From an uncultured Alphaproteobacteria bacterium (lineage in GTDB: Bacteria; Pseudomonadota; Alphaproteobacteria; Rickettsiales; CAIJLX01): 64,000 nt of DNA. Positions 6,464 through 60,033 of the stretch are shown here, piece by piece (position 1 is the first letter of the stretch; each line of letters starts with the position of its first letter). The position numbers and the translations under genes were made by a program. The DNA is taken from the NCBI GenBank assembly GCA_903821695.1, contig CAIJLX010000067.1:4956-68955 (forward strand). Direction: 5' to 3'. Below the pieces are notes generated by a model. That model had not been told where the DNA came from. It searched no databases and saw only the letters and a program-made list of their open reading frames with translations.

Positions 6464-6970
6464 TTATATTTCTGCCACTCCTGCAGCTCTGGATATCGTA
6501 CGCTGCATTTCGGAAAGACCGCTTATCAACAGCGGCCTTGCAGGTAGCACCTCTCCCATATCTAATATCTTAAACACATCATCAAAAATCCCACGCACAC
6601 GGGCACCTTTCGGATGGGCAGGATTTATCAGATGATATAAAAACGAAAAAGCCTCAGCGGCGTCGTGCTTTTTTATGGTGGCTTTATTGTGATACATATC
6701 TTCTTCAATCTGTAGCATACGCTCTAATGTTGCCTTCAGTACATCAGGCGCTACTGCCAAAACGCGATCATTGAAATAAAATGCCTGGCCATCTACAGGT
6801 GTAAAATTAAGCGCTTCGATATTGGAATCCTTGGCGTACCAATAAGGACCAGTCGCCGCTTTAGAGGCATTATGAAACGCCAGCGCCATATTTGATTTTT
6901 CACCCGACTCACTCACAATAGTAACGGCAACAAGTTTTGTCTTTGGCTCCACAATGAATTCTTCGTTCAT
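6464..6970 (-). CDS. Hypothetical protein (168 aa) inserted between carA and carB
   Basis: Its ATG overlaps the carA stop (ATGA, 6967-6970), and its stop lies 2 nt before the carB ATG. No family recognised. Confidence 0.6.
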
Positions 6971-10324: not shown

Positions 10325-11262
10325 AGTTTTTTATCTTTGCGATCTTGCTTGTCGCGCAGCTCTCTTGCGCGGAAAAGATCCGGCAAGTTATCGGCAATAT
10401 TCGCTATTTTTTCTGCAAGGTTCGTAGAGCCCGCGCTTCCGCCATTTCCTGCTCCATTTCCTGCTGTTCCAGCCCGTCCCACTGTTCTTTTGTCCACTCC
10501 AGGTTCTGTAATTTCTGGCTGATCGCTCCAGTCTTGTTGGCGGTATCGGTCATATTTTTCTCCATCTAGTACTTCTTCTTTTACTATTGATATCACAGTC
10601 GGCGGCAATCCTTTTAACTGTATTTGGCCATCGACCATCGTTTCTTCCACATCCTTAAATGTTACCGTTGTATTTTTAAAAAGCCTTACCAATCGGTCAT
10701 GTTGTGCCGCTATCACGCGGTGTTGTTCAAGGAAGCGCTCATTGTCTGTTGCGCGTGCGATATCAGGGTTATTTTGTCTGCCTAATGTAGTATGCAAATA
10801 ACTTTGGCGTGTACATGTCATCAACACGTTATGCTCTTCATAATTGCAAGAACGCACTCTGCTACGAAGATCTAACAAGAAATCAAGATTCTCTCCATGA
10901 TCCATCAGCACTATTGATAGATTTTTTTCAACCGCAGCCTGCACAATGTCGCGCACACTTGCGTAATATGCCTGTATTAAATGTGGAAGCTTTTCAGGGT
11001 GTTGCACATCGGCATGTTTTGCAATTTCCGGAAAAAGTGTTTGCCCAGTTTGCTTATCAATGCTCAAAAACGAACGTGGCTCGATAACCACTACGTTCTT
11101 ATCTGCAATGCCAGCATCTTTTAACATGCGTAGGTATACAGGTTTGCCTGTGCCGACGCCGCCGCTGATTAATAAAAAGAAAGGATGTTCCTGCGCTAGT
11201 CGCTCGTTGACGAGTAGATCTATCAAAGCAGGTGTCCCGTTGAATGGTTCACCGTATTGCAT
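10321..11262 (-). CDS. Hypothetical P-loop NTPase-like protein (possibly zeta-toxin/AAA_33-like) with a Gly/Ala-rich, then basic, C-terminal tail
   Basis: 313 aa. Walker-A-like LLISGGVGTGKP, where P replaces the usual T/S. A hydrophobic strand plus Asp (IVLMDHGEN) looks Walker-B-like. The tail reads GRAGTAGNGAGNGGSAG...RARELRDKQDRKDKKL. The family assignment is tentative. Confidence 0.6.
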   Translation of the reverse strand: MQYGEPFNGTPALIDLLVNERLAQEHPFFLLISGGVGTGKPVYLRMLKDAGIADKNVVVIEPRSFLSIDKQTGQTLFPEIAKHADVQHPEKLPHLIQAYYASVRDIVQAAVEKNLSIVLMDHGENLDFLLDLRSRVRSCNYEEHNVLMTCTRQSYLHTTLGRQNNPDIARATDNERFLEQHRVIAAQHDRLVRLFKNTTVTFKDVEETMVDGQIQLKGLPPTVISIVKEEVLDGEKYDRYRQQDWSDQPEITEPGVDKRTVGRAGTAGNGAGNGGSAGSTNLAEKIANIADNLPDLFRARELRDKQDRKDKKL

Positions 11263-19955: not shown

Positions 19956-20788
19956 TGCAGTCTTTCTCTTCCCTCGCCGCACTGATTGATGCTCAAAAAC
20001 CAAAAAGTCTTTTGGTTGATTTATGGGGCGTGATTCATGATGGTGAAGCACTTTATCCTGGCGTGGTCGATGGGCTTGGCTATCTCAAACAAAAAAAAGT
20101 CAGCGTCATTTTCCTTTCCAACGCACCACGTCGTGCAAGCGTCGCTGAAGCAAATTTAAAACGCCTCGGCATCGCCCGTGATTTGTATACTGGCATCATC
20201 ACCTCCGGCGAGGCAACGTTTGACTATCTTTCCGCCTCCTCACCCTGGGGCAAAAATTATATCTATATCGGCCCCGAAAAAGACCGCACGTTGCTTGATG
20301 GTTTGCCGTATACGGAAGTGACTCAAGCCAAAGAAGCCAGCTTCGCCATCTGCACCGGTTTTGATCATGATGATTCAACCTTGGCAGAAAAAATGCCCGC
20401 ACTCACCGCCGCCTATATTGCTAAACTTCCTCTCGTGTGTTCGAATCCAGATATGGAAATTGTCCGCCTCAGCGGCAAGCGTCCGCTTTGTGCTGGTGTG
20501 ATGGCGTTATGGTATGAAGAGCAAGGCGGCAATGCCTATTATTTCGGCAAGCCATATAAAAATATCTACGACCTGGCGATTAAAACTTACAACCTAGAAC
20601 CACAAACCACACTCGCGATTGGCGATAATTTGGATACCGATATTAAGGGCGCTAATAATTATGGCGTGCGTAGCGTGCTTGTTACTGGCGGTGTATTAAA
20701 CCAGGAGCTTCAAAGTGGCAAAAAGCTGGAAGATATTTGCCAAGCGAATGGCAATATCCCGAGCTTCACGATTGCCTCATTCCGCTAA
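19955..20788 (+). CDS. HAD-superfamily hydrolase, subfamily IIA
   Basis: 277 aa with the nucleophile motif LVDLWGVIHDG, LSNAPR and IGDNLDTDIKGA. The start overlaps the lysK stop. Confidence 0.8.
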   Translation: MQSFSSLAALIDAQKPKSLLVDLWGVIHDGEALYPGVVDGLGYLKQKKVSVIFLSNAPRRASVAEANLKRLGIARDLYTGIITSGEATFDYLSASSPWGKNYIYIGPEKDRTLLDGLPYTEVTQAKEASFAICTGFDHDDSTLAEKMPALTAAYIAKLPLVCSNPDMEIVRLSGKRPLCAGVMALWYEEQGGNAYYFGKPYKNIYDLAIKTYNLEPQTTLAIGDNLDTDIKGANNYGVRSVLVTGGVLNQELQSGKKLEDICQANGNIPSFTIASFR

Positions 20789-21286
20789 CGCTTTATCCAA
20801 CACCCTGCGCACATCTTTATCGTTCCAATCCACCGGCCCCATCGCACGGCTAATTTCCTGACCTTTTTTGTTGATGATGAGCGTGGTTGGCAAAGCGGAT
20901 ATCTCCAATAACCCAAAAATCTCACCCGTTGTATCTTTAGCAGGCTTTAAATGCGTCAGCTGGTGGCTCGCGTAATATTCACGGATCATTTCCATTTCAG
21001 CGCCACTATCTGCAATCGTCAGCACCACTAGGCCCTTTTTGGCATAGTCCGCTTGCAGCTTATCCAGCATCGGCTTTTCAATTTTGCAGGGCGCGCACCA
21101 GAGTGCCCAGAAATTGGCGATCACTACCTTCCCTTTCGTCTGCGCGTTCAAAAAATCGAGCGGAGGCAAAGACTTAGGGGAAGAAAGCTCAAGATTCCCC
21201 AGCTCCTGAGCAGCCGCAGTTTGCATGCTGATAGTGGTCACAATCAGAAAAATGAATGCACCCAAAATTACGCCTCTGCCTTGCAT
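20777..21286 (-). CDS. Periplasmic thiol:disulfide oxidoreductase, TlpA/ResA/CcmG-like
   Basis: 169 aa with a signal/anchor sequence and the thioredoxin motif FWALWCAPCKIE. Confidence 0.85.
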   Translation of the reverse strand: MQGRGVILGAFIFLIVTTISMQTAAAQELGNLELSSPKSLPPLDFLNAQTKGKVVIANFWALWCAPCKIEKPMLDKLQADYAKKGLVVLTIADSGAEMEMIREYYASHQLTHLKPAKDTTGEIFGLLEISALPTTLIINKKGQEISRAMGPVDWNDKDVRRVLDKALAE

Positions 21287-31994: not shown

Positions 31995-32573
31995 ATGACC
32001 ATCATAAATTCGAATTATTCAAGCAACGGCTATTATCAATTAGGTTCGCAGCAAAACACGGCCGCAACGACGACCGGCCCAACCTCACTGGCAGAGGCAT
32101 TGCAGGCAATCGATAACAAATCGGGTGATTCAGCGTATGAGCTTAATTTAAGCAGCGACGCAAATGATTATTTGCAGAGCTTGTTAGAGGCCACCAATAC
32201 TCAAAGCAGCGGGACAAATAGTGCAGATTCGATTCCGGATAATTTTACGCTGACGCCAGATCAGCAAAATAAATTGATCTCGATACTGGATAAATACAAA
32301 GATGCGCCGCAAACGCAGGAGACGTTCAACCAAATTCAAGATGACCTCAAACAAGCCGGTCTTGATCCGGACACATTAGCTGCCAAAGAACAGGCAAATA
32401 ATTTTAATCCTACGGCGGTATTGATTGCGATTATGAGTGGGCAGAGCAGCACCGACACCAACCCAACCGATCCACAACAGATCCAGAGTAAATACAATAC
32501 GCTGAAATCAAATTACCTGCAGCAGGTTGCTGAGATGTGGGAGAAACGCTCGAACGTTAACGCCGCCAGTTAA
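31995..32573 (+). CDS. Orphan Ser/Thr/Asn/Gln-rich protein (192 aa), no signal peptide
   Basis: Only open frame over 579 nt, with a GGAGAG RBS. Low-complexity polar N-terminus ([24 protein letters not shown]). No family recognised. Confidence 0.6.
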
Positions 32574-36861: not shown

Positions 36862-37685
36862 CCTCCCAGCACGCATTTGCGCAAACCTGGGGTTACTTGT
36901 GGCTTTACACCGAACCATTCCTCAAAACCGGGCGCGGCTTGATGCAGCAACATGCCCAATCCATCGACAACAGGATTACCACGAGCAGCCGCATTTTTGA
37001 GTAGCTCAGTTTGCAGTGGCGTATAGACAATATCGGTCACGATCGCCGATTTTGGCAGCTCATCCAAACTCATTTCGAGCGGTTGCCCGCCTTTCATGCC
37101 AAGCGAAGTAGCGTTAATCAGCAGATCAGCATTCGCCAATGATTCTGCCGGTTTTTTCCAATCCCCCACCGTAGTGTTAGGAAATATTTTAGAGAGTTGT
37201 AATGCTTTTTCCTTAGTGCGGTTTAATAGGCGAATGGAGGTCACTCCGGCTTCCAATAACGCAACGATGATGCCGCGTGCCGCGCCGCCTGCACCTAATA
37301 ACACTACGTTTGTCTTTTCTGGATTCCAGTTTGGCGCACCAGCCTTGAGGTTTTGGATAAAACCATAGCCATCGGTGTTAAACGCTTTCACGATACGGCC
37401 GCTATCAAACACTAGAGTATTTACCGCACCGATTTTTAACACATCCGGATCAATGACACCTAACTCGGTACAAATGCGGAAGGCGGTTTCTTTGTGTGGG
37501 ATTGTAAGGTTGAGGCCCGCAAAGCCTATTTTCGGCAATAGATGCAATGCATCTGGCAGATGATCTGGCGAAATTGGCAACGGCACATATGCACCTTCGA
37601 TTTTATATTCTTTTAGCCAATATCCATGTAGCGCTGGTGAACGTGAATGTTCGACCGGCCAACCGGCTACGCCCGCCAGTTTCAT
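36858..37685 (-). CDS. aroE: Shikimate 5-dehydrogenase
   Basis: 275 aa with SRSPALHGYW, LNLTIPHK and NADP-binding LLGAGGAARG. Confidence 0.94.
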   Translation of the reverse strand: MKLAGVAGWPVEHSRSPALHGYWLKEYKIEGAYVPLPISPDHLPDALHLLPKIGFAGLNLTIPHKETAFRICTELGVIDPDVLKIGAVNTLVFDSGRIVKAFNTDGYGFIQNLKAGAPNWNPEKTNVVLLGAGGAARGIIVALLEAGVTSIRLLNRTKEKALQLSKIFPNTTVGDWKKPAESLANADLLINATSLGMKGGQPLEMSLDELPKSAIVTDIVYTPLQTELLKNAAARGNPVVDGLGMLLHQAAPGFEEWFGVKPQVTPGLRKCVLGG

Positions 37686-38992
37686 ACTTTATCCTGAATG
37701 TTGGTCGCCGCTTGCGCAGGCGCTTTGTATTTCAAGAACGGCAGATATTTGGTGAGCGGTGCGAAGATGCTATGCTCATTCATATAAAGCCCATATTGGA
37801 CATATTCCGGATAATGCGAGAGGTGGTTCTCTTCCGTTTTAGCGCGCAAATAATAAATGAGATTTACACCTGCCAGCAACACACTATGACGAATTGCATC
37901 GTCGATGCCAGCGCTCGAAATAAACGGAACGGAGATCAGCCACCAGCTAAAATTTTTAGTCACATAGGCCGGATGTTTAGTGAAACGATATGGCCCATTT
38001 GCAACCAACCCACGATAAGTTAAATTTGAGAAACGATACCCAAGGCACACCGTCGCCAATGCATAAATTACTTCGAGGGAAAGAATTATCATGCCCCAGA
38101 AGAAATAGATCGCCGGGGTTTGTTCAAACAAGTTCCCCCAATAAATATTATCATCATAGGCAAAATAATGGCCGTAAAACAGCGTTTGCCAAAGCGGCGC
38201 ATAACACATGATGGCAACCACCCAACCGCGGAAAGTCGGCTCTGAAGAACGGATGTGCGAATCGAGGAAGCGGAACGTCATTGCATAACCAACGCCGGCA
38301 AAAATAAGATCGGCGAAGAAAATTAAATTGTTCGAATATTCAAAAAATCTTCTGAAATCGGTCATATTATTGAAGTCATAATTCACAATCATCTGTGCGT
38401 TGCCACCGAGATAGGTGAACATCAGCGGCAAGAAGAATGCCTTTACCAACCAATTGCGCAAATGGCGGCCGATCAGATTAATATCCACCTCGCTCCATTG
38501 CAGCATGACGAGCAAACCCATCTGCCAATAGGCATCTTCAGGCTCCTTCATGCGGCCATCCATCCACCAGAAATAGGGGATCGAAAACAGCACGAGTAAC
38601 GGAATGGTATAATTCAGCACGTCCCAATAACGCCCGAAGTTATTGATGCTATATTCCGGAATTACCCAATATAAAAACGCCAGGAACGCGAGCGTGCCGA
38701 TAAGGCCAACGATTTTTACCGCCACGCGCTCCGGATTAGCATCATCTGCTTTTTGTTTAAGGCCTGTGCTTGGGCGATCTTGCACTTTGAACACAAATAA
38801 TTCGACGATAAAGATCGGCAGTGATGCAGCAAACATTGCGACTACAGAAAGCGTCAATATATCCGTTCCCGGAAAATAAAACCGCACCACCATTAATGAG
38901 AGCATGCAGCAAGCAAACCCAAACAGGTTTAAGCCAAGATGCGAAACGGATGGTGGCAACGCGAGCGGCTTCTTATTGAAGAATTTTGCCAT
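37682..38992 (-). CDS. Polytopic membrane protein with a C-terminal ICMT/PEMT-like methyltransferase domain
   Basis: 436 aa with about 10 TM helices. The C-terminal GPYRFTKHPAYVTKNFSWW...RAKTEENHL resembles the isoprenylcysteine carboxyl methyltransferase motif GxYxxxRHPxY...EE. The stop overlaps the aroE start. Confidence 0.65.
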   Translation of the reverse strand: MAKFFNKKPLALPPSVSHLGLNLFGFACCMLSLMVVRFYFPGTDILTLSVVAMFAASLPIFIVELFVFKVQDRPSTGLKQKADDANPERVAVKIVGLIGTLAFLAFLYWVIPEYSINNFGRYWDVLNYTIPLLVLFSIPYFWWMDGRMKEPEDAYWQMGLLVMLQWSEVDINLIGRHLRNWLVKAFFLPLMFTYLGGNAQMIVNYDFNNMTDFRRFFEYSNNLIFFADLIFAGVGYAMTFRFLDSHIRSSEPTFRGWVVAIMCYAPLWQTLFYGHYFAYDDNIYWGNLFEQTPAIYFFWGMIILSLEVIYALATVCLGYRFSNLTYRGLVANGPYRFTKHPAYVTKNFSWWLISVPFISSAGIDDAIRHSVLLAGVNLIYYLRAKTEENHLSHYPEYVQYGLYMNEHSIFAPLTKYLPFLKYKAPAQAATNIQDKV

Positions 38993-42142: not shown

Positions 42143-43156
42143 ATGACACAACATACTGCGGATATTGTAATAATTGGGGCCGGACCTGTGGGGCTTTTTG
42201 GTATTTTCGAGGCGGGGATGCTGAAAATGCGCTGCCACGTCGTCGATGCGCTTGAATATAGCGGCGGCCAGTGCACAGCCCTTTACCCCGAAAAACCCAT
42301 CTACGACATTGCCGGTTTCCCGAGCATTCAGGCGGCAGATTTGATCTCTAACCTAGAGCAACAAGCCGAGCCTTTTTCGCCGGTTTATCACTTTAATCAA
42401 CGTGTAGACAAACTTGCCAAAACTGCCGATGGCTGGAGTGTCACCACATCTACCGGCACAAAAATTGATGCAAAAGCCATCGTCATCGCGGCTGGTTGTG
42501 GCGCATTTGGCCCAAACCGTCCGCCGCTTGCAGGGCTTGAGCAATATGAAGGCAAAAGCGTCTTTTATCTCGTCAAACGTCGCGAAGATTTCCGTGGCAA
42601 AAAAGTAGTGATCGCTGGTGGTGGTGACTCCGCTGTCGATTGGGCGATCTCGCTTTCGGAAGTGGCAGAGCGAGTGAGCGTTGTGCATCGCCGCCCTAAA
42701 TTCCGTGCCGCCCCAGAAAGCGAAGCACGCCTAAAAACACTCGCTGATTCCGGTAAAATCGATTTGGTGATTCCGTATCAATTGCATGGCCTCGAAGGCA
42801 ATAACGGCCAGCTCTCTAATGTGATTGTGTCGGATCTTGATAACACAACAAAATCTATGCCAGCCGATATTTTGCTGCCATTCTTTGGCCTTGCGATGGA
42901 GTTAGGGCCGATTGCAGATTGGGGTTTAAACCTCACACAAAATCATATCACCGTGAATCCTGCCACGATGGAAACCAGCGCAGAAGGCATTTATGCGATT
43001 GGTGATATCGCGACTTATGAAGGTAAATTAAAACTCATCGTGTGTGGATTTGCCGAAGGTGCGATGGCGATGCATGCGGCGTATAATCGGGTGCATCCGG
43101 ATAAGGCGCTGCATTTTGAATATTCGACTTCAAAGGGAGTGCCAAACGCCGCATGA
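42143..43156 (+). CDS. fnr: Ferredoxin-NADP+ reductase, thioredoxin-reductase-like type
   Basis: Preferred start MTQHTADIVIIGAGPVGLF. YSGGQCTALYPEKPIYDIAGFP is characteristic of TrxR-like FNR. Second dinucleotide motif VVIAGGGDSAVDWA. Confidence 0.9.
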   Translation: MTQHTADIVIIGAGPVGLFGIFEAGMLKMRCHVVDALEYSGGQCTALYPEKPIYDIAGFPSIQAADLISNLEQQAEPFSPVYHFNQRVDKLAKTADGWSVTTSTGTKIDAKAIVIAAGCGAFGPNRPPLAGLEQYEGKSVFYLVKRREDFRGKKVVIAGGGDSAVDWAISLSEVAERVSVVHRRPKFRAAPESEARLKTLADSGKIDLVIPYQLHGLEGNNGQLSNVIVSDLDNTTKSMPADILLPFFGLAMELGPIADWGLNLTQNHITVNPATMETSAEGIYAIGDIATYEGKLKLIVCGFAEGAMAMHAAYNRVHPDKALHFEYSTSKGVPNAA

Positions 43157-45087
43157 GACGTTTCCTTTTCATCGCACTTTGTTTGACTTTGCCTTTCGCA
43201 GCTTCCGCGCAGATGAAAAGTACGTTTGGTAACGCGTTAGTCGATTCGGCCGATCAAGGTATCGAAGCCCTCGTCACCGCCCAAATCCGCAATGGCAATA
43301 GCGTGAATGTGAAAGGCAACTTCGGAGTGTCGCCACTCATGCGGGCTTCCTATCACGGTTATACTAATGTGATGGATCAATTAATTAGCTTAGGCGCCGA
43401 TGTAAACATGGCAGATGAAGGTGGCGCCACAGCGCTGCATCTCGCCGCGCGGCAGGGCAAAGTTGAGGCCGTTAAATTACTACTTAAATATGATGCCGTG
43501 GTCGATGTCGCCGATGCTGAAGGCTGGACACCGCTGATGCGCGCCGTCGCTGGACAGAAACAGGAGGTGGCGGAAATCTTGTTAAAAGCTGGCTCTAATG
43601 CCCAAACAAAAAATGAATGGGGCGATACGGCGCAGAAATTTGCTGAAAAAATCCCTAATAATGCACCGCTGCTCGAGTTGATGAAACAAACCGTTCCGCA
43701 AGAAAAGAAATTAACCGCAGCGGAAGCAACCCAACGCAATGTGAGCGTGCAAGCGGAAGAAGTATTGCCCAATGACCTTCCACAAGGCGAAAGCATCGCG
43801 ATGCCATTACCCAAAGCAGCCGAAGTGGCCGCTGTTGATTCCGAGCAGCTACAAAAAGAAGAAGCCGATCGTCAAGCATTGTCACAACGCTTAGAAGCTG
43901 AAAAAATCGCACGTGCACGGGCAGATGCCGATCTGCAAGTAGCACTTGCAGCCCGGGAGCAACGTGAAGCAGCAATTCAGGCAGCGGCACGGGTAGAAGA
44001 TAATAGAACGTTAGAAGAAAAACAGATGGCCGAAACGCAAGCCCGGATTGATCTCGAAAAAAAGGCCGTTGCTGTGCTTGAGAAAAAAGCGGCACAACTC
44101 GCACAAGAAAATGCAAAACGTGAAGTAGAACTCGCACAAGCACAAGAAAATGCACGCATCCAAGCTGAACAACAAGCCGCCGCCGAAGCAGCAAAAAAAG
44201 CAGAGCTACTGGCCCAGGCAGAAGTAGAAGCGCGTATCCAAGGCGAAAAACTCGCCGCCGCAGAAGCAGATCAAAAAGCGAAGTTGATAGCGCAGGAAAA
44301 TGCAAAACATCTTGCTGAGCTCGCACAGGCACAGATGGAAGCGCGCATTCAGGCAGAAAAACAAGTAGCCGCGCAAATCGAAAGAAAAACCATGTTACTT
44401 GCACAGGAAAAAACACAGCGTGAGGCGGAGCTAGCGGCACAAGAGGCACGCAAAGCAGCCTTAATTGCACAAGAAAACGAACGCCTTATTGCCCTGCAAA
44501 AAGAAGGTGAGCGTCGCCTGCAAGTCGCTGCAGAAAAACGCAACATGGAGCTGGCATTACAGCAAGAGCAACTCGCCCGCCAAGCCACGGAAGAAAAACT
44601 ACACGCCGAACTGGCACGCCAAAAAAATATTGCCGAGCAGCAGAAGCAGTTTGAGGTGGCCGCTGTCGAGCCACCTAAAGCAGCCGTCACTCCCTTACCG
44701 GCCAGTGATAATATCTTGATCGGCGAAGCGATTGCGGTGCCGGTATCGTCCAATCCACTCATAGTTGCAGCGGCGAACCCTCAGCCTTCCCTGCTCAAAA
44801 TGAACAAAGGGGTCTGGTTACAAGTAGGGCCCTTTATCGAGGAACAGGAGGCCGTGGCCTATTATAACGGGGCGGTTGAGAGCATGACAGACCTGTTGCC
44901 CGCCCGGATGAAAGTGATCACCGCTAACTTTTTGACCGAGAACGCCCCCCAGAATTTCTTGCGGATGGGACCCTATACCACTCAAAAGGTGGCAGAATTA
45001 GCCTGCGGCTCGTTCCGACAGAGCGAACTTTTCTGCGAATATGTGCGGGAAGAAGCGGCTGAAAGATATAACCGCAGACGCCTGTAA
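43153..45087 (+). CDS. Secreted ankyrin-repeat / long coiled-coil / C-terminal SPOR-like domain protein
   Basis: 644 aa. Signal peptide MRRFLFIALCLTLPFAASAQ. ANK repeats (GATALHLAARQGKVEAVKLLLKYDAVVDVADAEGWTPLMRAV). About 330 aa of AQ/E/K-rich heptad-like repeats. The C-terminus VWLQVGPF...FLRMGPYTTQKVAELAC resembles SPOR. Its ATGA overlaps the fnr stop. Confidence 0.85.
   Translation: MRRFLFIALCLTLPFAASAQMKSTFGNALVDSADQGIEALVTAQIRNGNSVNVKGNFGVSPLMRASYHGYTNVMDQLISLGADVNMADEGGATALHLAARQGKVEAVKLLLKYDAVVDVADAEGWTPLMRAVAGQKQEVAEILLKAGSNAQTKNEWGDTAQKFAEKIPNNAPLLELMKQTVPQEKKLTAAEATQRNVSVQAEEVLPNDLPQGESIAMPLPKAAEVAAVDSEQLQKEEADRQALSQRLEAEKIARARADADLQVALAAREQREAAIQAAARVEDNRTLEEKQMAETQARIDLEKKAVAVLEKKAAQLAQENAKREVELAQAQENARIQAEQQAAAEAAKKAELLAQAEVEARIQGEKLAAAEADQKAKLIAQENAKHLAELAQAQMEARIQAEKQVAAQIERKTMLLAQEKTQREAELAAQEARKAALIAQENERLIALQKEGERRLQVAAEKRNMELALQQEQLARQATEEKLHAELARQKNIAEQQKQFEVAAVEPPKAAVTPLPASDNILIGEAIAVPVSSNPLIVAAANPQPSLLKMNKGVWLQVGPFIEEQEAVAYYNGAVESMTDLLPARMKVITANFLTENAPQNFLRMGPYTTQKVAELACGSFRQSELFCEYVREEAAERYNRRRL
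44101..44520 (+). repeat. Diverged in-frame tandem repeats (about 174-189 nt period) inside the ankyrin/coiled-coil gene
   Basis: Units beginning GCACAAGAAAATGCAAAACG (44101), GCGCAGGAAAATGCAAAACA (44290) and GCACAAGAAAACGAACGCC (about 44467) encode the recurring (L/I)AQEN(A/E)(K/R)...AQAQ..ARIQAE blocks. This region generates many spurious ORFs on both strands. Confidence 0.55.
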
Positions 45088-51610: not shown

Positions 51611-51646
51611 CGCTAAATGGAAACTGTTTTACAGAAGAGAACTTAT

Positions 51647-52765
51647 ATGGCTGAATTGTCGTTAGTGGATGTGATTAATCTAAAGAATAATCCCTCACGC
51701 GAATCGCGATTATTAGTAGCCGAAAAAGTCTGTGATCAATTTAATTCCCGCAATTTTACTGAAGAAGAAACGATTGTAGTCGCGGAAGTTTTCCGCCTGC
51801 TCGCCAAAGATGCCGAGGCGGTGATTCGCCAGGCGATGGCAGAAAAATTGAAACATAATTCCCGTTTGCCAGAAGATATCGCGTTTATGCTTGCCAATGA
51901 TGTGATGCAAGTGGCGCTGCCGATTCTACAATTCTCCCCTGCACTTTCCGAAAATGACCTAATAACGATCGTGCGTGGCACAAAGGAACTGGCCAAATTA
52001 TTGGCAATTACGCATCGCGATGTATTGACACCAGCGGTTTCGAAAGAGCTGCTCAATAAAAGACAAAGTATGATTGCTGAATCTTTATTACGCAATAAAG
52101 GTGCATTGATTGCAGAAGAAGATCTACAGCAAATTATACTGGATTATAGCCGCAATGAACCAATGCTTTCCGTATTGGTTGCACGTGACGATCTGCCTGC
52201 TTCGATCGCTGAAAAAATGTTGTCCATCGTAACCGGCGCACTCAAAGAAGAATTGATGAAAAAACATACGCAGGATGCGCATGTCATTAATGAAGCCGCT
52301 GACGAAGCACGCGAACAGGTTACCTTAAAATATGTGGCAATGCCTTCGGGTGCTGACCAAAAAAAGGAATTGGTGGATCATTTATACCGCTCGCAAAAAT
52401 TAAATTCCTCGATGGTGATTCGTTCGATTTGCCTTGGCGATTTGGATTTCTTCATTGCCAGCATGGCAAAATTAACCAACTGGAAAAAAGCACGTATCGA
52501 ACAGGCGATTAAAGATACTAACATGGAAGCGTTGCGCTTGCTCTATCGCACCGCCGGCTTCCCCGAAAGCATTCAAGATGCCACCTTGGCCGTGTTAATC
52601 CTGGTGTTGGATGAATTAAATAAGGGCCAAAAATCTGGCTCACCGGTATTAGCTGGGCGCATTATTGAGCGGGTCGTAGCTGCTGGTTATGACCGTTCCG
52701 TCAACAACATGTCCTATTTATTGACATTAGTTGGCAAGAAAACCTCAGTCGCCACCCTGCACTAG
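51647..52765 (+). CDS. Helical-repeat protein, DUF2336-like (paralog 1)
   Basis: Track ORF 51617-52765. About 372 aa, all-helical-looking. VAEVFRLLAKDAEAVIRQAMAEKLKHNSRLPEDIAFMLANDVMQVALPILQFSPALSENDL resembles alphaproteobacterial DUF2336 proteins (from memory). Confidence 0.85.
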   Translation: MAELSLVDVINLKNNPSRESRLLVAEKVCDQFNSRNFTEEETIVVAEVFRLLAKDAEAVIRQAMAEKLKHNSRLPEDIAFMLANDVMQVALPILQFSPALSENDLITIVRGTKELAKLLAITHRDVLTPAVSKELLNKRQSMIAESLLRNKGALIAEEDLQQIILDYSRNEPMLSVLVARDDLPASIAEKMLSIVTGALKEELMKKHTQDAHVINEAADEAREQVTLKYVAMPSGADQKKELVDHLYRSQKLNSSMVIRSICLGDLDFFIASMAKLTNWKKARIEQAIKDTNMEALRLLYRTAGFPESIQDATLAVLILVLDELNKGQKSGSPVLAGRIIERVVAAGYDRSVNNMSYLLTLVGKKTSVATLH

Positions 52766-52772
52766 ATTTGAT

Positions 52773-53903
52773 ATGATGAAAGCTATGAAATTAGATCATA
52801 ACGACGTTTCAAGCCTGCTGGCAGACAACACTCCGGCCAATCAAATTGGCGTGGTGGAAAAAATGTCTCATCAATATACCGACCAAAGCGGTGAGCCTTT
52901 TAATAGCGAACAATCCGTATTAGCCGAAGATATTTTCCGCCTGCTAATGAAAAACGCTGAAACACACGTGCGTGCCGCATTGGCGCAGAACCTAAAAACT
53001 GCCGGCAACGTACCGCGCGATATTATTCTGAGCATGGCGAAAGACGTGGAAGAAGTGAGTATGCCTGTGCTTACATTCTCGGATGTATTAACTGAAGCTG
53101 ATTTGCTCGAAATTATTCAAACCAGCACCGATGAAACCAAACATTTAGCAATTGCTGGCCGCCAAGTGGTCTCCGAAAAAATATCCGATGCGTTGGTGGA
53201 AACGGGCCGCGAAAATGTTGTGGCAAAACTGGTGAAAAACGAAGGTGCGGCGATTGCAGAAACCACCTTTAACAAAATCGTCGATCGCCACGCACAGAAT
53301 GAAGCGATCGTACAATCCATGATCGAGCGTGGTTCATTACCTATCGCGGTTGCGGAAAAGATGATGGAAAAAGTTTCCGGTGTGATCCGCGATAAACTGA
53401 AAGAAAAATACGAAGGCCAGCTGGATAGCTCCAAACTCAATAAAGTGGTGGAGCAAAGCTTAGAAGTTGCAACGCTCAAATTGATGGGCTTGAAAACGAC
53501 CGACAAGCAATTGGTTGGCCTCTTAAAATATCTCGGCGAAACCGGCAAACTTTCACCATTTACTGCGCTTTGTATGGGCGACTGGCATTTGTTTGAAGTG
53601 AGTATGTCGCGCTTAGCACGGGTGCCACTCAAAAACGTAAAACTCCTGCTTTCCGATAAAAGTGGCGAGGGTTTTCAATTACTTTACCTTAAGTCTGACC
53701 TACCAGAAAGCATGATGGAGGCAGTTGGACTTGCGGTCAAAGCGATGCTTGCTCTGGAGATGGCACAAAGTAACAATACGATCAAAATTATGCAGTTCAG
53801 CCCAGTAGAAGTGATGGAAAAAATGTCCGAACTTTCCGGCAAACAGGATGTTCCGAACGTGCATTATTTAATGACTATGATGCAGCACCATTTACGCGCA
53901 TAA
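52773..53903 (+). CDS. Helical-repeat protein, DUF2336-like (paralog 2)
   Basis: 376 aa. Collinear with paralog 1 (AEDIFRLLMKNAETHVRAALAQNLKTAGNVPRDIILSMAKDVEEVSMPVLTFSDVLTEADL). Starts 7 nt after paralog 1 ends. Confidence 0.85.
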   Translation: MMKAMKLDHNDVSSLLADNTPANQIGVVEKMSHQYTDQSGEPFNSEQSVLAEDIFRLLMKNAETHVRAALAQNLKTAGNVPRDIILSMAKDVEEVSMPVLTFSDVLTEADLLEIIQTSTDETKHLAIAGRQVVSEKISDALVETGRENVVAKLVKNEGAAIAETTFNKIVDRHAQNEAIVQSMIERGSLPIAVAEKMMEKVSGVIRDKLKEKYEGQLDSSKLNKVVEQSLEVATLKLMGLKTTDKQLVGLLKYLGETGKLSPFTALCMGDWHLFEVSMSRLARVPLKNVKLLLSDKSGEGFQLLYLKSDLPESMMEAVGLAVKAMLALEMAQSNNTIKIMQFSPVEVMEKMSELSGKQDVPNVHYLMTMMQHHLRA

Positions 53904-55155
53904 ATTTTCGCTTCACCAGCTTCGTCACCGGCAATGCTTCCACCTGCAACACCGCATCTTCCTTAAGCGGCGGCAAATTCACCGGATGTTCCATCAACTC
54001 TTCATATACATCCAATGTTGCTTCCGTCATCTTGGTAATCGGGAATTGCTCTTTCGCATGAGCAATGCACTCTTCCGCCATTTCCAAGCGCGCGGCTGGG
54101 CGCTTCAGCGCCGCTAATGCAATATCTAGCGTTTCGGTGAGCGCTTCTACATCCCCCGGCGTGACCAACCAGCCGGTGCGGCCAGGCAGAATGGTTTCCA
54201 AAAACCCACCATGGTTCGTTGCGATTACGGGTTTACCCATCGCTTGCGCTTCGATCGCCACTCGGCCAAAGGCCTCAGGTTCTAACGACATACAAGCCAC
54301 AAAACTCGCCACATGATAAGTGGCTGCCATGTCATAGGTATGTTTTACAATCCGCACGTTACCAACCAGGTCATATTCACGAATCATCTCTTCTAATTCT
54401 TCGCGGTAACTGGAGTGATTTTTATCATCGCCAATAATCAGGCAGAAGAAATTCCGGTGCGGTAATTTCTTTAAGCCTTCGAGCAAGAAGCTGTGACCTT
54501 TCCAGCGTGTCAGGCGTGCTGGCATCAAAATTACCGGCAGTTCGGATGGAATTTTCAAATAATGGAAGAGGCGCATCAGCCGTGCTTCCGTCATGTGGTT
54601 TACATCGAATGTTTCTAAGTCTACCCCACGCGGAATCATCACCAAGCGTTCGGGGTCGATCGAGTAATGATCCTTAATATGGCGTTCGATAAATTCCGAA
54701 ATCGCGATCACCCGTTCGCCTTTGGTCATAATCGCGTTGTAATGTTTTTTGAAGCGCCCTTCGAGGTTATAGGTGCCATGGAAAGTCGTTACCAAATGGC
54801 AGCCGGCATTTTTTGCGGCATAATATGCACTCCAGGCCGGCGCACGTGAGCGCACATGGATAATATCAACATTATGCTCCTGCACGATGCGCTCAATATG
54901 GCGAATATTGGTATAGATATTCCACGGGGTCTTGCGATTAAGCGGCAACGTAATATGTGTAATTCCCGCCTGCTCCAACTGCCGCACCAGCGAGCCGCCG
55001 GAGGAAGCAACCAGCGGGATCATCCCCCGCTCTTTCATCGCAATCGCCATCTCTACGGTTCCGCGCTCTACCCCGCCAGATTGCAAGGATGGGAGCAACT
55101 GTAAAACAGTCACTTTTTTTGTATTAGCAGTCGAATTTTTGCGGCGAATTGCCAT
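53875..55155 (-). CDS. Glycosyltransferase family 1 (GT-B, GT4-like)
   Basis: 426 aa. N-terminal VLQLLPSLQSGGVERG. The C-terminal EAFGRVAIEAQAMGKPVIATNHGGFLETI is the GT1 EX7E region. Confidence 0.88.
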   Translation of the reverse strand: MAIRRKNSTANTKKVTVLQLLPSLQSGGVERGTVEMAIAMKERGMIPLVASSGGSLVRQLEQAGITHITLPLNRKTPWNIYTNIRHIERIVQEHNVDIIHVRSRAPAWSAYYAAKNAGCHLVTTFHGTYNLEGRFKKHYNAIMTKGERVIAISEFIERHIKDHYSIDPERLVMIPRGVDLETFDVNHMTEARLMRLFHYLKIPSELPVILMPARLTRWKGHSFLLEGLKKLPHRNFFCLIIGDDKNHSSYREELEEMIREYDLVGNVRIVKHTYDMAATYHVASFVACMSLEPEAFGRVAIEAQAMGKPVIATNHGGFLETILPGRTGWLVTPGDVEALTETLDIALAALKRPAARLEMAEECIAHAKEQFPITKMTEATLDVYEELMEHPVNLPPLKEDAVLQVEALPVTKLVKRKFMRVNGAAS

Positions 55156-55283
55156 AAAGTTTTGAAGGTTAATCTGTTGAATCGTTTGCTTTTTCTACTC
55201 CCCTCCTATCCGAAATGCAAACGCAATTCGCGCAAATCGAATTGCTGCTTGAAGAAGGGGGTGGCCTATGGCACTCTCTTGGC

Positions 55284-56816
55284 ATGAAACTCTTGTGGAT
55301 TCTATGCCTTGCTCTCTTTTTGTCCCTGCCTTTAACCCTGGCAGCGCAAAATGCACCGCCACCCGGAGGTGCATATATCTCTATCGTTCCCCAAAACAAA
55401 TATCCTAACGGACAGAATGACCCCAATGTGGCCGGCGAATGCTTGCCGATTAAAAATGGCTGGGTGCCACCTGTTTTTGGCAAAGCCTGCCGGATTTATG
55501 CTCCGGGCAATTTATCCAATGGCAGCAGCGCTAGTAGTAGTGGCAGCAACACGAGTACCAGCGCCAGCACAAGTGCCGGCAGCGGCGCAGGCGCGAGTGG
55601 AAGTGGTAGCAGTAGTGGTGGCGTTGTTTGGAGAAATAGCGCTGCTGTCACGTTTGGTGCTAGCAGCGGCGGGCGGTGGGAACCAAACCCCAATGACAAT
55701 GGTGGTAGTAGCAGTAGTAGCAGCGGAGCAGATACGAGCAGCAGCGGCAGCACCAATAACCCCAATTGCCCAGTTCCCGGCACAGAAGATCCGATCCCTT
55801 GCGATGACAATGAAGAGTGCGCGAAAGATTGCGTGAATGGCACACCAATCTGCCTTGAATATGATGAGAATTGCGGATGCACTAAATGGGAAACGCCGCA
55901 AGATTGCCATTGTAAACCTAAATGCGATATTCCCGATCCGAATTATCCTTTCTGCTGTAAGGTCGCCGATAAATCTGGTTATCCTTGCCTAAAAGTGTGC
56001 ACGCTTCCGAGCGGTGATACAGTCGATATCGAACAAAACCCGCCTATCTGCAGAAAATTTTCTGAATGCTGCTATGGCAAACGTGAGGATGATGGCAGTA
56101 CTCCAAATTGCAGTAACAGTAGCATTCCTAGAAGCCCTAATTGCGATCCGGTCGAAACCGAACCCGGCGATCCGCGGGATTATTGTAAGATGAAGTGTGT
56201 AGATGTGTGCGAAGATAAGCAAGCAGTGCAGCGCACGAAAACTTCAAGCGATATTTTCCCTGAATGCTGTACACCGCCGATTCCTATCTCCATTGCCTGT
56301 GCTTGTTGTCGTGATGGAACCGCCAATAAACCTGCTTCGGATTATTGCGAATATTTCTTCCGTTTCTTTAGTTGTGATGATGCGACTCTTGCGTGCCCGA
56401 GTGATCCATCGCTCAACCAATGTGTGATGACAGTTGATAAAAAGAAGAATTGGGTAGAAGGTGACACCAGCCTGCCAGAATATGACCCGAACCATGATCC
56501 GTATTTGACCTTTGACCCGCGATTTAGCTTTTGCCAGGGTCAATGGAACAACCGTAATTGCCGCTATATCTGTCGTGGCCAAGGTATTTTGACCGGTAAA
56601 AATGCACCAACCATGGGCATCTGGGTGAAGGATTATATTGATAATAGCGGCAAACCGATTGAAAATAATTATGCCCTCGAAGTAGAAGGTAATTGTACAG
56701 ACGATCAAGGCCAGGCAAAGCCTATCCCTTGGCCACCGGGGAATCAGCACCAAGAAAAATGTGGTGACCCGATTAGCAGCAGTGGCAGCAGTGCTAGTAG
56801 CAGTAGCGGCCAATAG
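55284..56816 (+). CDS. Secreted cysteine-rich protein with Ser/Gly-rich tracts, no recognisable family
   Basis: Track ORF 55215-56816. I prefer the ATG at 55284, which gives the signal peptide MKLLWILCLALFLSLPLTLAAQN. There are 38 Cys after the signal peptide (hand count), 36 of them in a ~330-aa core, including the CC doublets FCC, SECC, PECC and ACC. It also has poly-Ser/Gly/Thr linkers and a Ser-rich C-terminus. Confidence 0.8.
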   Translation: MKLLWILCLALFLSLPLTLAAQNAPPPGGAYISIVPQNKYPNGQNDPNVAGECLPIKNGWVPPVFGKACRIYAPGNLSNGSSASSSGSNTSTSASTSAGSGAGASGSGSSSGGVVWRNSAAVTFGASSGGRWEPNPNDNGGSSSSSSGADTSSSGSTNNPNCPVPGTEDPIPCDDNEECAKDCVNGTPICLEYDENCGCTKWETPQDCHCKPKCDIPDPNYPFCCKVADKSGYPCLKVCTLPSGDTVDIEQNPPICRKFSECCYGKREDDGSTPNCSNSSIPRSPNCDPVETEPGDPRDYCKMKCVDVCEDKQAVQRTKTSSDIFPECCTPPIPISIACACCRDGTANKPASDYCEYFFRFFSCDDATLACPSDPSLNQCVMTVDKKKNWVEGDTSLPEYDPNHDPYLTFDPRFSFCQGQWNNRNCRYICRGQGILTGKNAPTMGIWVKDYIDNSGKPIENNYALEVEGNCTDDQGQAKPIPWPPGNQHQEKCGDPISSSGSSASSSSGQ

Positions 56817-56859: not shown

Positions 56860-57147
56860 ATGACCATTACACCTGAAATTGTTAAGAAAGTTGCCCGCCT
56901 CTCGCGCCTCTATTTGAGCGAGGCAGATGTCGCGCATTATACCCAAGAATTAAACGGGATTATGAACTGGATTGAGCAATTGCAGGAAGTAAATACCGAT
57001 GGTGTGGAACCAATGGCCGCCGTCGGCAATATGACCCTGCGTTATCGCGATGATGTGGTCAATGATGGCAACCAACAACAAGCCGTGCTCGCCAATGCGC
57101 CATCGTCTGATTATGGCTGTTTTGTTGTGCCGAAAGTGTTGGAATAA
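56860..57147 (+). CDS. gatC: Asp/Glu-tRNA amidotransferase subunit C
   Basis: 95 aa with VKKVARLSRLYLSEADVAHYTQELNGIMNWIEQL. Confidence 0.93.
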   Translation: MTITPEIVKKVARLSRLYLSEADVAHYTQELNGIMNWIEQLQEVNTDGVEPMAAVGNMTLRYRDDVVNDGNQQQAVLANAPSSDYGCFVVPKVLE

Positions 57148-58614
57148 ATGACCGCCCTCACCTCTCTCTCCATTAAAGAAGCCAGCGAAGGCTTAAAGAA
57201 AAAACAATTCTCGGCGAAGGAATTGGTAAACGCCTCGCTGACTGCTGTCGAAAATGCGAAGCATTTAAACGCCTTCATCGTCACCACCCCCGAAATCGCA
57301 CTCAAACAAGCCGCCGAAGCCGATGCCCGCATCGCCAAAGGCGAAGCCCGTTTGCTGGATGGCATTCCAATCGGCGTGAAAGATTTATTCTGCACCAAGG
57401 GCGTACTCAGCAGCTCTTGTTCAAAAATTTTAAAAGACTTCAAACCGCAATACGAATCCACCGTCACCACTAATTTATTTAACACTGGTGGCATCATGAT
57501 CGGCAAAACCAACATGGATGAATTCGCCATGGGTTCCGCCAACATCACCAGTTCTTATGGCAATGTGATCAACCCGTGGAAAAGCAAAAATTCGACCAAA
57601 GATTTAGTACCCGGCGGCTCGAGCGGAGGTTCCTCCGCCGCCGTCGCCGCACGTTTGGTGCAAGCTGCGCTTGGCTCCGACACTGGCGGCTCCATCCGCC
57701 AACCGGCTGCCTTCACCGGCACCACCGGTATTAAACCAAGCTATGGCAGATGCTCACGCTATGGCATGATCGCCTTCGCAAGTTCGCTTGATCAAGCCGG
57801 CCCACTCGCCCGCACAGTGGAAGATTGCGCATTAGTGTTAGAAGCTATCGCCGGCTTTGATGCGAAAGATTCTACCTCGCTCAACGCACCCGTGCCACAA
57901 TGGGCAAAAAATATAAATCCAAATTTAAAGGGCAAGAAAATCGGCATACCAAAAGAATATATGCCCGATGGTTTGAGTGCGGAATTGAAAGCATTGTGGG
58001 ACAAAGGCACCGAATGGCTGAAAGCTGCCGGCGCAGAAATTGTTCCCGTGTCACTGCCCCACACAAAATATGCACTCGCGACTTATTATATCGTAGCGCC
58101 CGCAGAAGCCTCCTCCAACCTCGCCCGCTTTGATGGCATGCGTTATGGTTTGCGCGTTACCGACGGCGTGAAATCGCTTGATGACATGTATGCAAAAACA
58201 CGGGCCGAAGGTTTTGGCGCGGAAGTGAAACGCCGGATTTTGATGGGAACCTATGTGCTTTCAGCTGGCTATTACGACGCCTATTACAAAAAAGCACAGC
58301 GTGTACGCGCCTTAATTTCGCGTGATTTCGAACAGGCATTTGAAAAAGTGGATGCACTACTCACACCAACCGCACCAACACCTGCTTTCGCCATCGGCGA
58401 AAAAATGGAAGATCCGTTGACGATGTATTTGAACGACGTGTTCACCGTTCCTGCAAGCCTAGCGGGCGTACCCGCAATGGCAGTTCCGGCTGGTTTATCG
58501 AGCGATGGTCTGCCACTTGGTTTGCAAATTATCGGCAAACTTTATGATGAGCAAACGGTGTTTGATGTATCACGTGCGATCGAGCTTGCAGCGAACTTCA
58601 CCGCCAAACCTTAA
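57148..58614 (+). CDS. gatA: Asp/Glu-tRNA amidotransferase subunit A
   Basis: 488 aa with the amidase signature [13 protein letters not shown] and [12 protein letters not shown]. Confidence 0.96.
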
Positions 58615-59306
58615 TTCACTTCTCGCGCAATCCAGACCACTCGGCCGATGATATTGATATCAGTAAGAGGGCGAGTATGCGGTGCATAATTTAAATTGTC
58701 GGAAAGAATTTGCACTGTGCCATCGGGCTGCAATTCCAACCGTTTCACAATTAAACCAAACCCATCGAACAACACAAAGATACCAGCCGGGCTTGGTGTA
58801 GTTTCTTTGAGATTAATTAAAACAGTATCACCTTCCGAAAGCGTAGGCGCCATGCTATCGCCTTTGACATCGACTACACGCAACTCATTTGGATTGGCGT
58901 TTAGTTTTTGTTTCACCCAGTTGCGATTGAAGAAGAATGGTTTGTCATCTCGCTCTTGCGTTACCATGCTGGCACCCGCTGCTGAAGTTTCAACGGCGAG
59001 TGATGCAATCGATAAAATTTCATTCGATTTCTGTTCTGTTTTGGGATGTTTGCCACCGCCCCATGATTCTTCGCCATAGAGCAAATACGACATGCTGACA
59101 CCGAGCGAATTCGCGACGGCGGATAATTTATGTGTGGTTGGATTGAGTGATTTTCCGCTCAACACATCATAGACAAAAGAACGCCCAACCTCTGCGTTTT
59201 CCGCCAGTTCGCGCGCATTCACTTGCGCACGTTCCATGGCAATGCGCAGGCGTTCGATCAAGGCCTGGTTCATTTCGTAGGATTCTTTTTTCTTCTTTTC
59301 TTCCAC
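58611..59306 (-). CDS. XRE-type HTH / S24 peptidase repressor (phage cI/LexA-like, autocleavable type)
   Basis: 231 aa. N-terminal HTH ([20 protein letters not shown]...[15 protein letters not shown]) and C-terminal S24 with [10 protein letters not shown] (Ser) and IVKRL (Lys). Alternative ATG at 59273. Confidence 0.85.
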
Positions 59307-59950: not shown

Positions 59951-60033
59951 CTCCTAAGCCATTGATACTACAATCGAATTCGCTATAATTTCGGCATAGC
60001 AACGATTGGCATTTCAAAGGTTTCGGCAGCGTT

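Follow-up and report, generated by a model that had tools for sequence, protein, structure and literature searches.

Bacterial proteins with more than a handful of disulfide bonds are uncommon. Among the best comparators for a cysteine-rich bacterial export are the chlamydial proteins OmcB and OmcA, Sec-exported products of lineage-restricted core genes whose function depends on disulfides made outside the cytoplasm, and the YTV-type wall proteins of planctomycetes, which are likewise exported, rich in cysteine and proline and restricted to their lineage. A different kind of resemblance, in layout, is offered by the secreted modular proteins of aquatic proteobacteria, in which a poly-Ser or Ser-Gly linker joins a carbohydrate-binding module (CBM) to a catalytic domain. 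Here we analyse a stretch of 64,000 nucleotides (hereafter the window) on contig CAIJLX010000067.1 of an uncultured alphaproteobacterium, and more specifically one of its genes, which starts at position 55284 and encodes a cysteine-rich protein of 510 amino acids. We are confident that this gene encodes a real, exported and fully disulfide-bonded protein belonging to an orphan family. We favour, with less assurance, the view that the product is a lineage-specific modular extracytoplasmic protein in which a disulfide-stapled core is carried on a flexible tether.

The mechanically called open reading frame (ORF) spans positions 55215-56816 on the forward strand. The coding product begins further in, with an ATG at position 55284 (Met24 of that ORF), which is where the signal peptide opens in every orthologue. 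At the related locus L001 the bases corresponding to 55215-55283 are kept, but they fall in a different reading frame, and because of this shift we take the segment to be a conserved non-coding leader and not protein.

Relatives of the protein are few. A word-indexed search across 5.8 billion clusters recovered an identical protein, on a 76-kb JGI contig, together with six relatives at 39-70% identity, 7-8 clusters overall, and an exhaustive profile search of 1.84 billion representative proteins with the core profile returned 7 representatives, all of them obvious members and four of them new to the family. The whole family comes to about 11 sequence clusters in some 15 billion proteins, and core identity among orthologues ranges from 40 to 72%. 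The two most conserved peptide patterns had no match in the GTDB species-representative genomes and found one fragment (L089) in the JGI metagenomes. No relative was recovered by the pattern scan of IMG/VR, by tblastn against plasmids or among the PHROGs phage families. From this distribution the family appears to be confined to a small uncultured alphaproteobacterial group.

Within that group the gene is intact at all fetched loci (L001-L003, L004, L005-L007, L008 and L090), and intact orthologues occur in at least nine independent assemblies from several sources. One apparent exception, the relative P0003 as a split gene of 65-aa and 379-aa ORFs, was rejected on translating the DNA, which carries an uninterrupted frame of 509 aa. 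The public calls in L001 (a spurious 65-aa ORF at 9828-10025 and a truncated 379-aa ORF at 10001-11140) are repeated in L002 and L003, and the true ORF in L001 lies at 9611-11137; the miscall arose because an in-frame (GGAAGY)9 Ser-Gly repeat misled the gene caller.

Conservation is concentrated on the cysteines. In a seven-sequence alignment 33 of the 36 core cysteines are invariant, compared to 69 of the 305 other residues (23%; Fisher P = 2.5e-16). A 34th is conserved but shifts in the alignment, so that the family shares 34 positionally conserved core cysteines against the 36 of the window protein. Between the window and its closest relatives L001 and L008, the core has a nonsynonymous divergence (dN) of 0.19-0.21 and a ratio of nonsynonymous to synonymous divergence (omega) of about 0.1, a value that is approximate because synonymous sites are near saturation and that was computed for the closest pairs only. 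A chance or decaying frame, or an assembly artefact, is effectively refuted by these data: the lack of a recognisable Shine-Dalgarno sequence before 55284 and an annotation of the protein as no more than 'hypothetical protein' speak in its favour, but the frame stays open in independent assemblies, dN is far below dS, the cysteines are held and the upstream region is conserved as well. Judged from these comparisons, the ORF is a real gene under purifying selection, vertically inherited and single-copy, and no paralogue was found within the window. The base composition of the gene is native: its GC content at third codon positions (GC3) is 0.458, compared to 0.505 +/- 0.043 for the other window genes (z = -1.1). 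A horizontal origin was considered and rejected, since GC3 and GC both fall inside the range of the genome.

The original prediction had described a secreted protein with 38 mature cysteines, 36 of them in a core with CC and CxC motifs, and with Ser/Gly tracts, and on recounting all of these features were found. The precursor has 39 cysteines, one in the signal peptide (C8), two in an N-terminal module (C53 and C69) and 36 within residues 162-493. Cysteine makes up 7.6% of the protein, compared to a mean of 0.87% over the other 50 genes of the window, of which the next richest reaches 2.2%; the binomial probability of at least 36 cysteines in 335 aa is about 1e-27. Doublets are located at 224/225, 262/263, 328/329 and 341/342, and CxC pairs at 197/199, 208/210 and 339/341. 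Two Ser/Gly tracts and a terminal Ser tract are present. The mature protein is acidic (59 D+E vs 39 K+R) and rich in proline (51 residues, 10%), and the whole protein contains just 3 His and 4 Met, with no His invariant among the orthologues.

The number of cysteines varies among relatives, but its parity does not. In the eight full-length orthologues the mature counts are 38, 38, 38, 36, 36, 36, 44 and 34, even in all eight, and the changes that separate them are compensated. The loop cysteine C276 is matched with C287 in the window protein; in the nearest relatives P0002, P0003/L001 and P0008 it is balanced by a single cysteine in the C-terminal tail, and orthologues that lack the loop cysteine lack the tail cysteine too. 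In P0010, C162 and C197 are both missing, and C225 has become His while a new Cys has appeared at position 242. Even, compensated counts and Sec export together support full intramolecular disulfide bonding, in line with the even count having been read originally as a sign of a fully bonded module. We infer that all mature cysteines would be paired within the chain, giving 19 bonds in the window protein and 17 in the conserved core. C53-C69, C162-C197 and C276-C287 are, tentatively, candidate pairs.

The same observations bear on a periplasmic protein that binds or stores metal through reduced cysteine thiolates, in the manner of a metallothionein or a copper-storage protein. A very high cysteine density with CC and CxC motifs is what such a protein would display. 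However, even parity and compensated cysteine changes are unexpected for metal clusters, His and Met are scarce with no His invariant, and Sec export leads into an oxidising compartment. Beyond that, no profile matches the protein, and low-confidence structural models give little helix outside some 75 residues, making a helical-bundle store unlikely. We regard metal-thiolate binding as very improbable. A haem-binding role of the c-type cytochrome kind is likewise unsupported: there is no CxxCH motif in the protein, its sole CxxC (339-342) lies within a CACC, no His is invariant, and cysteine parity is kept.

Export is indicated by the N-terminus. The only strongly hydrophobic segment covers residues 1-20, with a peak 15-aa Kyte-Doolittle mean of 2.58 compared to 1.55 elsewhere, and it is followed by a small-x-small (-3,-1) cleavage motif, of the A-x-A type and directly ahead of the conserved mature N-terminus in all orthologues. 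The Sec signal peptide that had been proposed is thus upheld by rule, and cleavage by signal peptidase I is predicted after residue 20 or 21. No twin-arginine motif was found in the signal peptide. A lipoprotein was rejected by the lipobox criterion ([LVI][ASTVI][GAS]C some 15-25 residues into the chain, its Cys conserved as +1): the only signal-peptide cysteine, at residue 8 after WIL, is too near the N-terminus to be a lipobox cysteine, and it is not conserved, being missing from L001, P0006 and P0007. In function, and not by homology, the protein resembles the class of Sec-exported, DsbA-oxidised proteins, having a signal peptide by rule and cysteines that appear to be paired.

Downstream of the signal peptide the mature protein is built of distinct parts (Table 1). 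The small N-terminal module has the consensus [YF]PVxPPGSYxNDPxxxGECLPxYxWPxFGxACR, in which Y, N, P, E, C, P, P, F, G and C are invariant (alignments A1 and A5). It is followed by a low-complexity spacer in which S, G and T account for 52 of 84 residues and Cys is absent. Among orthologues the spacer can be as short as about 15 aa or as long as about 100 aa. In L001 the spacer includes the in-frame hexanucleotide repeat, and in P0010 it is not Ser/Gly-rich. The core itself falls into three portions and a variable loop. Residues 160-265 carry 17 Cys and are weakly predicted to form strands, low-confidence models placing short strands in the first 100 residues. The loop contributes the C276/C287 pair specific to the window protein. 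Residues 289-364 carry 10 Cys in a helix-prone arrangement (C-x3-C-x3-C ... CC ... CxCC ... C-x8-C), for which the same models place three helices over residues 298-361. Residues 365-494 carry 7 Cys and many invariant polar and aromatic residues (D405, D411, R413, N423, Y428, W447, E460, N462, N470 and W483-P-P). No internal repeats were detected in the core by hhalign, either between segments or for the core against itself (best probability about 5%). The Ser tail is restricted to the window lineage; several orthologues stop 1-3 residues past the last core Cys. P0007 has a further 6-Cys module at its N-terminus and two spacers instead of one, an architecture that underlines the beads-on-a-string design.

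Table 1. Coordinates of the cysteine-rich gene, the segments of its product and the adjoining features in the window.
Feature	Position	Strand	Remarks
GT4-family glycosyltransferase	53875..55155	-	Pfam Glyco_transf_4 + Glycos_transf_1; divergent; no specific equivalog
GT4/cysteine-rich gene intergenic region	55156..55283	+	128 bp; presumed promoter/operator or 5' leader, non-coding
Sec-type signal peptide (by rule)	55284..55346	+	residues 1-21, MKLLWILCLALFLSLPLTLAA; only hydrophobic segment; A-x-A end common to orthologues
N-terminal module	55347..55508	+	residues 22-75 (54 aa); Cys pair C53/C69; alignments A1, A5
Ser/Gly/Thr/Ala low-complexity spacer	55509..55760	+	residues 76-159 (84 aa); from composition
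Cysteine-rich core	55761..56765	+	residues 160-494 (335 aa); 36 Cys, 38 Pro; net charge about -20
C-terminal Ser-rich tail and stop codon	56766..56816	+	GDPISSSGSSASSSSGQ; alignment A1
gatC	56860-57147	+	43 bp past the stop codon of the cysteine-rich gene
gatA	57148-58614	+	follows gatC

This layout recalls the poly-Ser-linked secreted proteins, which have the same succession of signal peptide, small aromatic-rich disulfide module, variable Ser-rich linker and large C-terminal domain, and P0007 with its two small modules and two linkers is organised alike. Polysaccharide-degrading enzymes are among the proteins secreted in this form. By analogy, the protein could be an extracytoplasmic enzyme with catalytic residues at about 365-494, the cysteine-rich part acting as scaffold and the N-terminal module and linker serving substrate binding. 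The polar residues that are invariant in the 11 members (D405, D411, R413, N423, Y428, E460, N462 and N470) and the module-linker-module layout are consistent with such an activity. However, no catalytic, carbohydrate-binding or glycoside-hydrolase family was found with Pfam, NCBIfam or PDB profiles, the invariant residues may just as well have structural or ligand-binding roles, and 17-18 disulfides in the large domain are foreign to the known enzymes of this layout. We consider an enzymatic function improbable.

The absence of a nameable family, reported in the original prediction, persists under wider searching. The window protein has no match in Pfam, NCBIfam, PADLOC or PHROGs, nor in the PDB by single sequence or by profile A2, and the exhaustive profile search described above returned the protein's own family only, with no confident hit to a characterised bacterial family. 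Across the 11 members, Pfam hmmscan (E<=10) gave just three unrelated sub-threshold hits, each in one member. A profile search with the N-terminal module alone returned nothing, missing the family's own members too. No paper on such a cysteine-rich family, nor any on the samples of origin, was found in the literature. It had also been suggested that the composition is that of eukaryotic extracellular or toxin-like knots. Dense cysteines with CC and CxC motifs are indeed common to eukaryotic modules (EGF-like, granulin, knottin, hydrophobin, nsLTP, Ole e 6), and 8-Cys-like spacings can be picked out by eye (C..CC..CxC..C..C at 305-364 and C-x9-CC...C-x5-CC at 214-263). Against this, no EGF, granulin, knottin or other cysteine-module profile matches (Pfam E<=10), there is no periodic repeat, an 8-Cys look is expected by chance at such density, and no eukaryotic relative was found among the 1.84 billion representative proteins. 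The single candidate, Ole e 6 (PF09253), was rejected: just one of the 11 members hit it, with 15 bits (E = 0.025) where the cut-off is 27.7. The resemblance to eukaryotic knots thus gained no support beyond composition. Taken together, the gene founds an orphan family with a possibly new fold. In general terms its product is of a known kind, a Sec-exported modular protein stabilised by disulfides.

The protein also diverges rapidly. Between the window and L001, identity is 98% for RpsB, 97% for EF-Ts, 93% for GatA, 91% for GatC, 85-87% for the GT4 glycosyltransferase and 73% for a LexA-like regulator, compared to 64% for the cysteine-rich protein overall and 72% for its core, and the dN of the core is the highest of eleven genes compared. 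The pattern is one of a rigid Cys/Pro/Asp skeleton whose surface positions change freely, which is compatible with extracellular exposure without proving it.

Fast divergence at non-Cys positions is also what a secreted bioactive protein might show, that is a toxin, an antimicrobial, a protease inhibitor or an effector acting on a host or prey and stabilised by disulfide knotting. A composition like that of eukaryotic secreted cysteine-rich effectors fits this explanation, as does the phylogenetic setting: with the GT4 protein as yardstick, the public genomes that come closest are metagenome-assembled genomes labelled Rickettsiales, UBA998 or Alphaproteobacteria, at about 50% identity, and an ankyrin-repeat protein is encoded in the window. 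The genomic evidence runs the other way. No immunity gene, secretion-system gene or mobile-element context accompanies the gene, unlike polymorphic toxins and effectors; its neighbours at every locus are the GT4 gene, in some cases a hydrolase gene, gatC and gatA. The locus beside gatCA is fixed and vertically inherited across lineages whose GatC proteins are just 60% identical, and selection is purifying overall (omega about 0.1). The window furthermore encodes chemotaxis, motility and the biosynthesis of amino acids, cofactors and pyrimidines, and basal Rickettsiales of the UBA998 type have been described in one preprint as a free-living, flagellated family of heterotrophs (10.1101/2023.01.31.526412). 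We judge a secreted bioactive role unlikely. A surface adhesin or host-interaction factor, as proposed originally, is conceivable, but no finding here favours it in particular; neither an outer-membrane anchor nor an autotransporter, sortase or secretion-system signal was found, and the gene context is not effector-like. The ankyrin gene that had been cited as supporting context lies 10 kb from the cysteine-rich gene, in an unrelated context.

A second alternative, an envelope-stiffening protein, draws on the chlamydial complex and the planctomycete walls: the protein would belong to a disulfide cross-linked layer at the periplasm/outer-membrane face. Export, the cysteine and proline contents and the fact that the clade has it as a core gene, in single copy and at a housekeeping locus, all agree with this view, and like OmcB and OmcA the protein is bacterial, exported, unusually cysteine-rich and encoded by a core gene of a restricted lineage. 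Several differences are nevertheless evident. There is no sequence similarity to OmcB/OmcA, and the Chlam_OMP6 and DUF11 profiles are matched by none of the 11 members (Pfam E<=10; exhaustive profile search). The cysteine density is about twice that of the chlamydial proteins, and there is no lipoprotein partner and no repeat domain. As for the planctomycete proteins, the YTV motif is absent, the YTV profile is unmatched in Pfam, and the cysteine-rich gene is single-copy and not part of a multigene family. The protein has neither a lipobox nor a beta-barrel. Its strictly even, compensated cysteine counts point to bonds within the chain and not between chains, and the envelope genes of the host are ordinary, OmpA (with a peptidoglycan-binding domain) and TolB both being encoded in the window and pointing to a normal envelope. 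An envelope-stiffening layer seems to us unlikely, on a par with the secreted bioactive role. We nevertheless place the envelope-stiffening protein first among the alternatives, the secreted toxin, inhibitor or effector second, the enzyme built on a disulfide scaffold third and the metal-thiolate protein last.

The remaining genes of the window describe the host. Housekeeping functions include ClpXP, CarAB, MotA, TolB, class I LysRS, ArgH, LysA, IleRS, CobT/CobS, AroE, CoaE and OmpA, and a peptide ABC importer, pyrH-tsf-rpsB and a Che operon are also encoded. The window reads as ordinary chromosomal DNA, and its gene content is that expected of a motile bacterium with biosynthetic competence and a normal Gram-negative envelope. 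Among these genes we noted ORFs without Pfam family at 37682-38992 (-, 436 aa), 31995-32573 (+, 192 aa) and 6464-6970 (-, 168 aa). A protein with a zeta-toxin-like kinase domain (10321-11262, -) is encoded beside a convergent 286-aa ORF without family match (9464-10324, +), and the two may be a toxin-antitoxin-like or orphan pair. The ankyrin protein (43153-45087, +, 644 aa) has its repeats in about the first 165 residues, the remaining 480 or so being without detected family, and shows a weak NCBIfam similarity, far under cut-offs, to the ankyrin parts of Legionella Dot/Icm effectors. Tandem DUF2336 paralogues (51617-52765 and 52731-53903, +) share about 30% identity with each other and are kept as a pair in L001-L004; the first copy is 76% identical to that of L001, evolving about like the cysteine-rich protein.

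Regarding disulfide formation, the window shows a single redox-folding gene, that of a TlpA/ResA-like thiol:disulfide oxidoreductase (20777-21286, -). This enzyme is of the reducing branch that serves cytochrome maturation, whereas oxidation of the cysteine-rich protein would call for an enzyme of the DsbA type, and no DsbA is encoded within the window.

At every locus with context the cysteine-rich gene lies 40-75 bp 5' of gatC-gatA. Conservation on the other side is less uniform. In L004-L007 an alpha/beta hydrolase gene is inserted between the GT4 gene and the cysteine-rich gene, abutting or overlapping the latter; the hydrolase is not at this position in the window, L001 or L008, and none is encoded elsewhere in the window. 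The divergent pair of GT4 and a hydrolase of about 250 aa (L004 4234-4932; L005 2251-3033; in L009-L088, some 45 loci with the hydrolase immediately upstream of the matched GT4) recurs across many alphaproteobacterial lineages, among them Geminicoccaceae, Acetobacteraceae, Pelagibacterales and UBA998. Dozens of the alphaproteobacterial genomes retrieved carry it with no gatC in the vicinity and no relative of the cysteine-rich protein. Because the pair is common in genomes lacking the cysteine-rich gene, we consider the adjacency to GT4 historical and see in it no evidence of a shared pathway. The pair is older and more widespread, and therefore the cysteine-rich gene was added beside it in the ancestor of a small clade. 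The synteny with the glycosyltransferase that had been anticipated is thus real as adjacency; a functional link to the enzyme was rejected, the ancient pair being conserved without the cysteine-rich gene.

Between the cysteine-rich gene and gatC, L005 has a clean intrinsic terminator hairpin at 4352-4423 (AAGCCCCGATG...CATCGGGGCTT followed by a T-run). In the window group the 43-bp gap contains no convincing terminator, and for this reason read-through into gatCA is possible there. On the 5' side, the 128-bp intergenic region shows strong conservation in the window, L001 and L008, by eye better than the synonymous sites of the flanking genes. It contains a perfect palindrome, GCAATTCGCGCAAATCGAATTGC, at 55223-55245 with 8-bp arms (GCAATTCG-N7-CGAATTGC), possibly an operator or else the hairpin of a leader. 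A conserved TGGCAC at about 55268-55273, 17 nt ahead of the start codon, was considered as a sigma-54 promoter and rejected by eye, since there is no conservation of the -12 element and the motif lies right against the start codon. No known RNA family was found by Rfam over the whole window.

Further downstream, a regulator with a helix-turn-helix and an S24 peptidase domain (LexA/CI-like; 58611-59306, -) is located between gatA and chpT. Its best match is the Ehrlichia ECH_1013 family, at 166 bits and under the 300-bit cut-off, a resemblance that hints at a Rickettsiales affinity. The regulator is 72-73% identical to its counterpart in L001 compared to 89-90% in L008. Between chpT and cheA, L001 and L002 have a two-gene insertion (L001 14325-14871, vs window 59951-60033) encoding 85 aa and a 99-aa ParE-like toxin, which the window lacks.

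With the alternatives weighed, we return to the modular extracytoplasmic protein with a disulfide-stapled core on a tether, for which the secreted modular proteins with poly-serine linkers provide the analogy. The chain would pass unfolded through Sec across the inner membrane and lose its signal peptide. Periplasmic thiol oxidases and isomerases would pair the 38 mature cysteines into 19 intramolecular disulfides, and the product would be a compact acidic scaffold resistant to proteases and denaturation. This core would be joined through a flexible and possibly glycosylated Ser/Gly tether to the small N-terminal module, which may act as a second, anchoring or targeting module, and the conserved polar and aromatic residues in the C-terminal third of the core may form the functional surface. 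As the most likely role we put forward, tentatively, that of a binding or structural module in the cell envelope or the extracellular space.

Several points weigh against this reading. The signal peptide was assigned by rule and not by a trained predictor. The parity argument counts perhaps 4-5 independent events, for which an all-even outcome has a chance of about 3-6%. The rapid evolution of the protein is not unique to it, because the LexA-like regulator (dN 0.18) and one DUF2336 paralogue (dN 0.15) are nearly as fast. AlphaFold2 models of the core with 7 sequences and of the central and C-terminal 209 aa with 11 sequences reached a predicted local distance difference test (pLDDT) score of 39 and 37 respectively, which makes them unusable for disulfide geometry or a binding surface, and a Foldseek search of the PDB with the pLDDT 39 model returned noise (best E 2.6, template-modelling score 0.07). 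Finally, no outer-membrane or peptidoglycan anchor and no linked secretion system were recognisable, and because of this the final site of the protein could be periplasm, surface or medium.

With 17-19 disulfides in about 335 residues, the core is to our knowledge perhaps among the most densely cross-linked of bacterial proteins. Having to reach about 19 correct pairings among astronomically many alternatives would make it a demanding natural substrate for periplasmic oxidative folding. The family also provides a clean case of protein 'dark matter', strongly conserved and evidently functional, yet with no detectable homologue outside itself and a fold beyond the reach of AlphaFold2. In this sense the cysteine-rich protein is a well-defined target for structure determination and not a mechanistic discovery. 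Should the fold prove new, it would widen the repertoire of disulfide-stabilised scaffolds and would be useful in protein engineering. Should the protein be a surface recognition module, it would bear on the ecology of basal Rickettsiales-like bacteria. A bolder idea, which we hold to be quite unlikely, is that the core is a new disulfide-rich fold from a deep Rickettsiales-like clade used at the cell surface to recognise a partner cell, be it a protist host, prey or a neighbour; if true, it would provide a molecular entry point to the first encounters between eukaryotic cells and the early-branching relatives of obligate intracellular bacteria.

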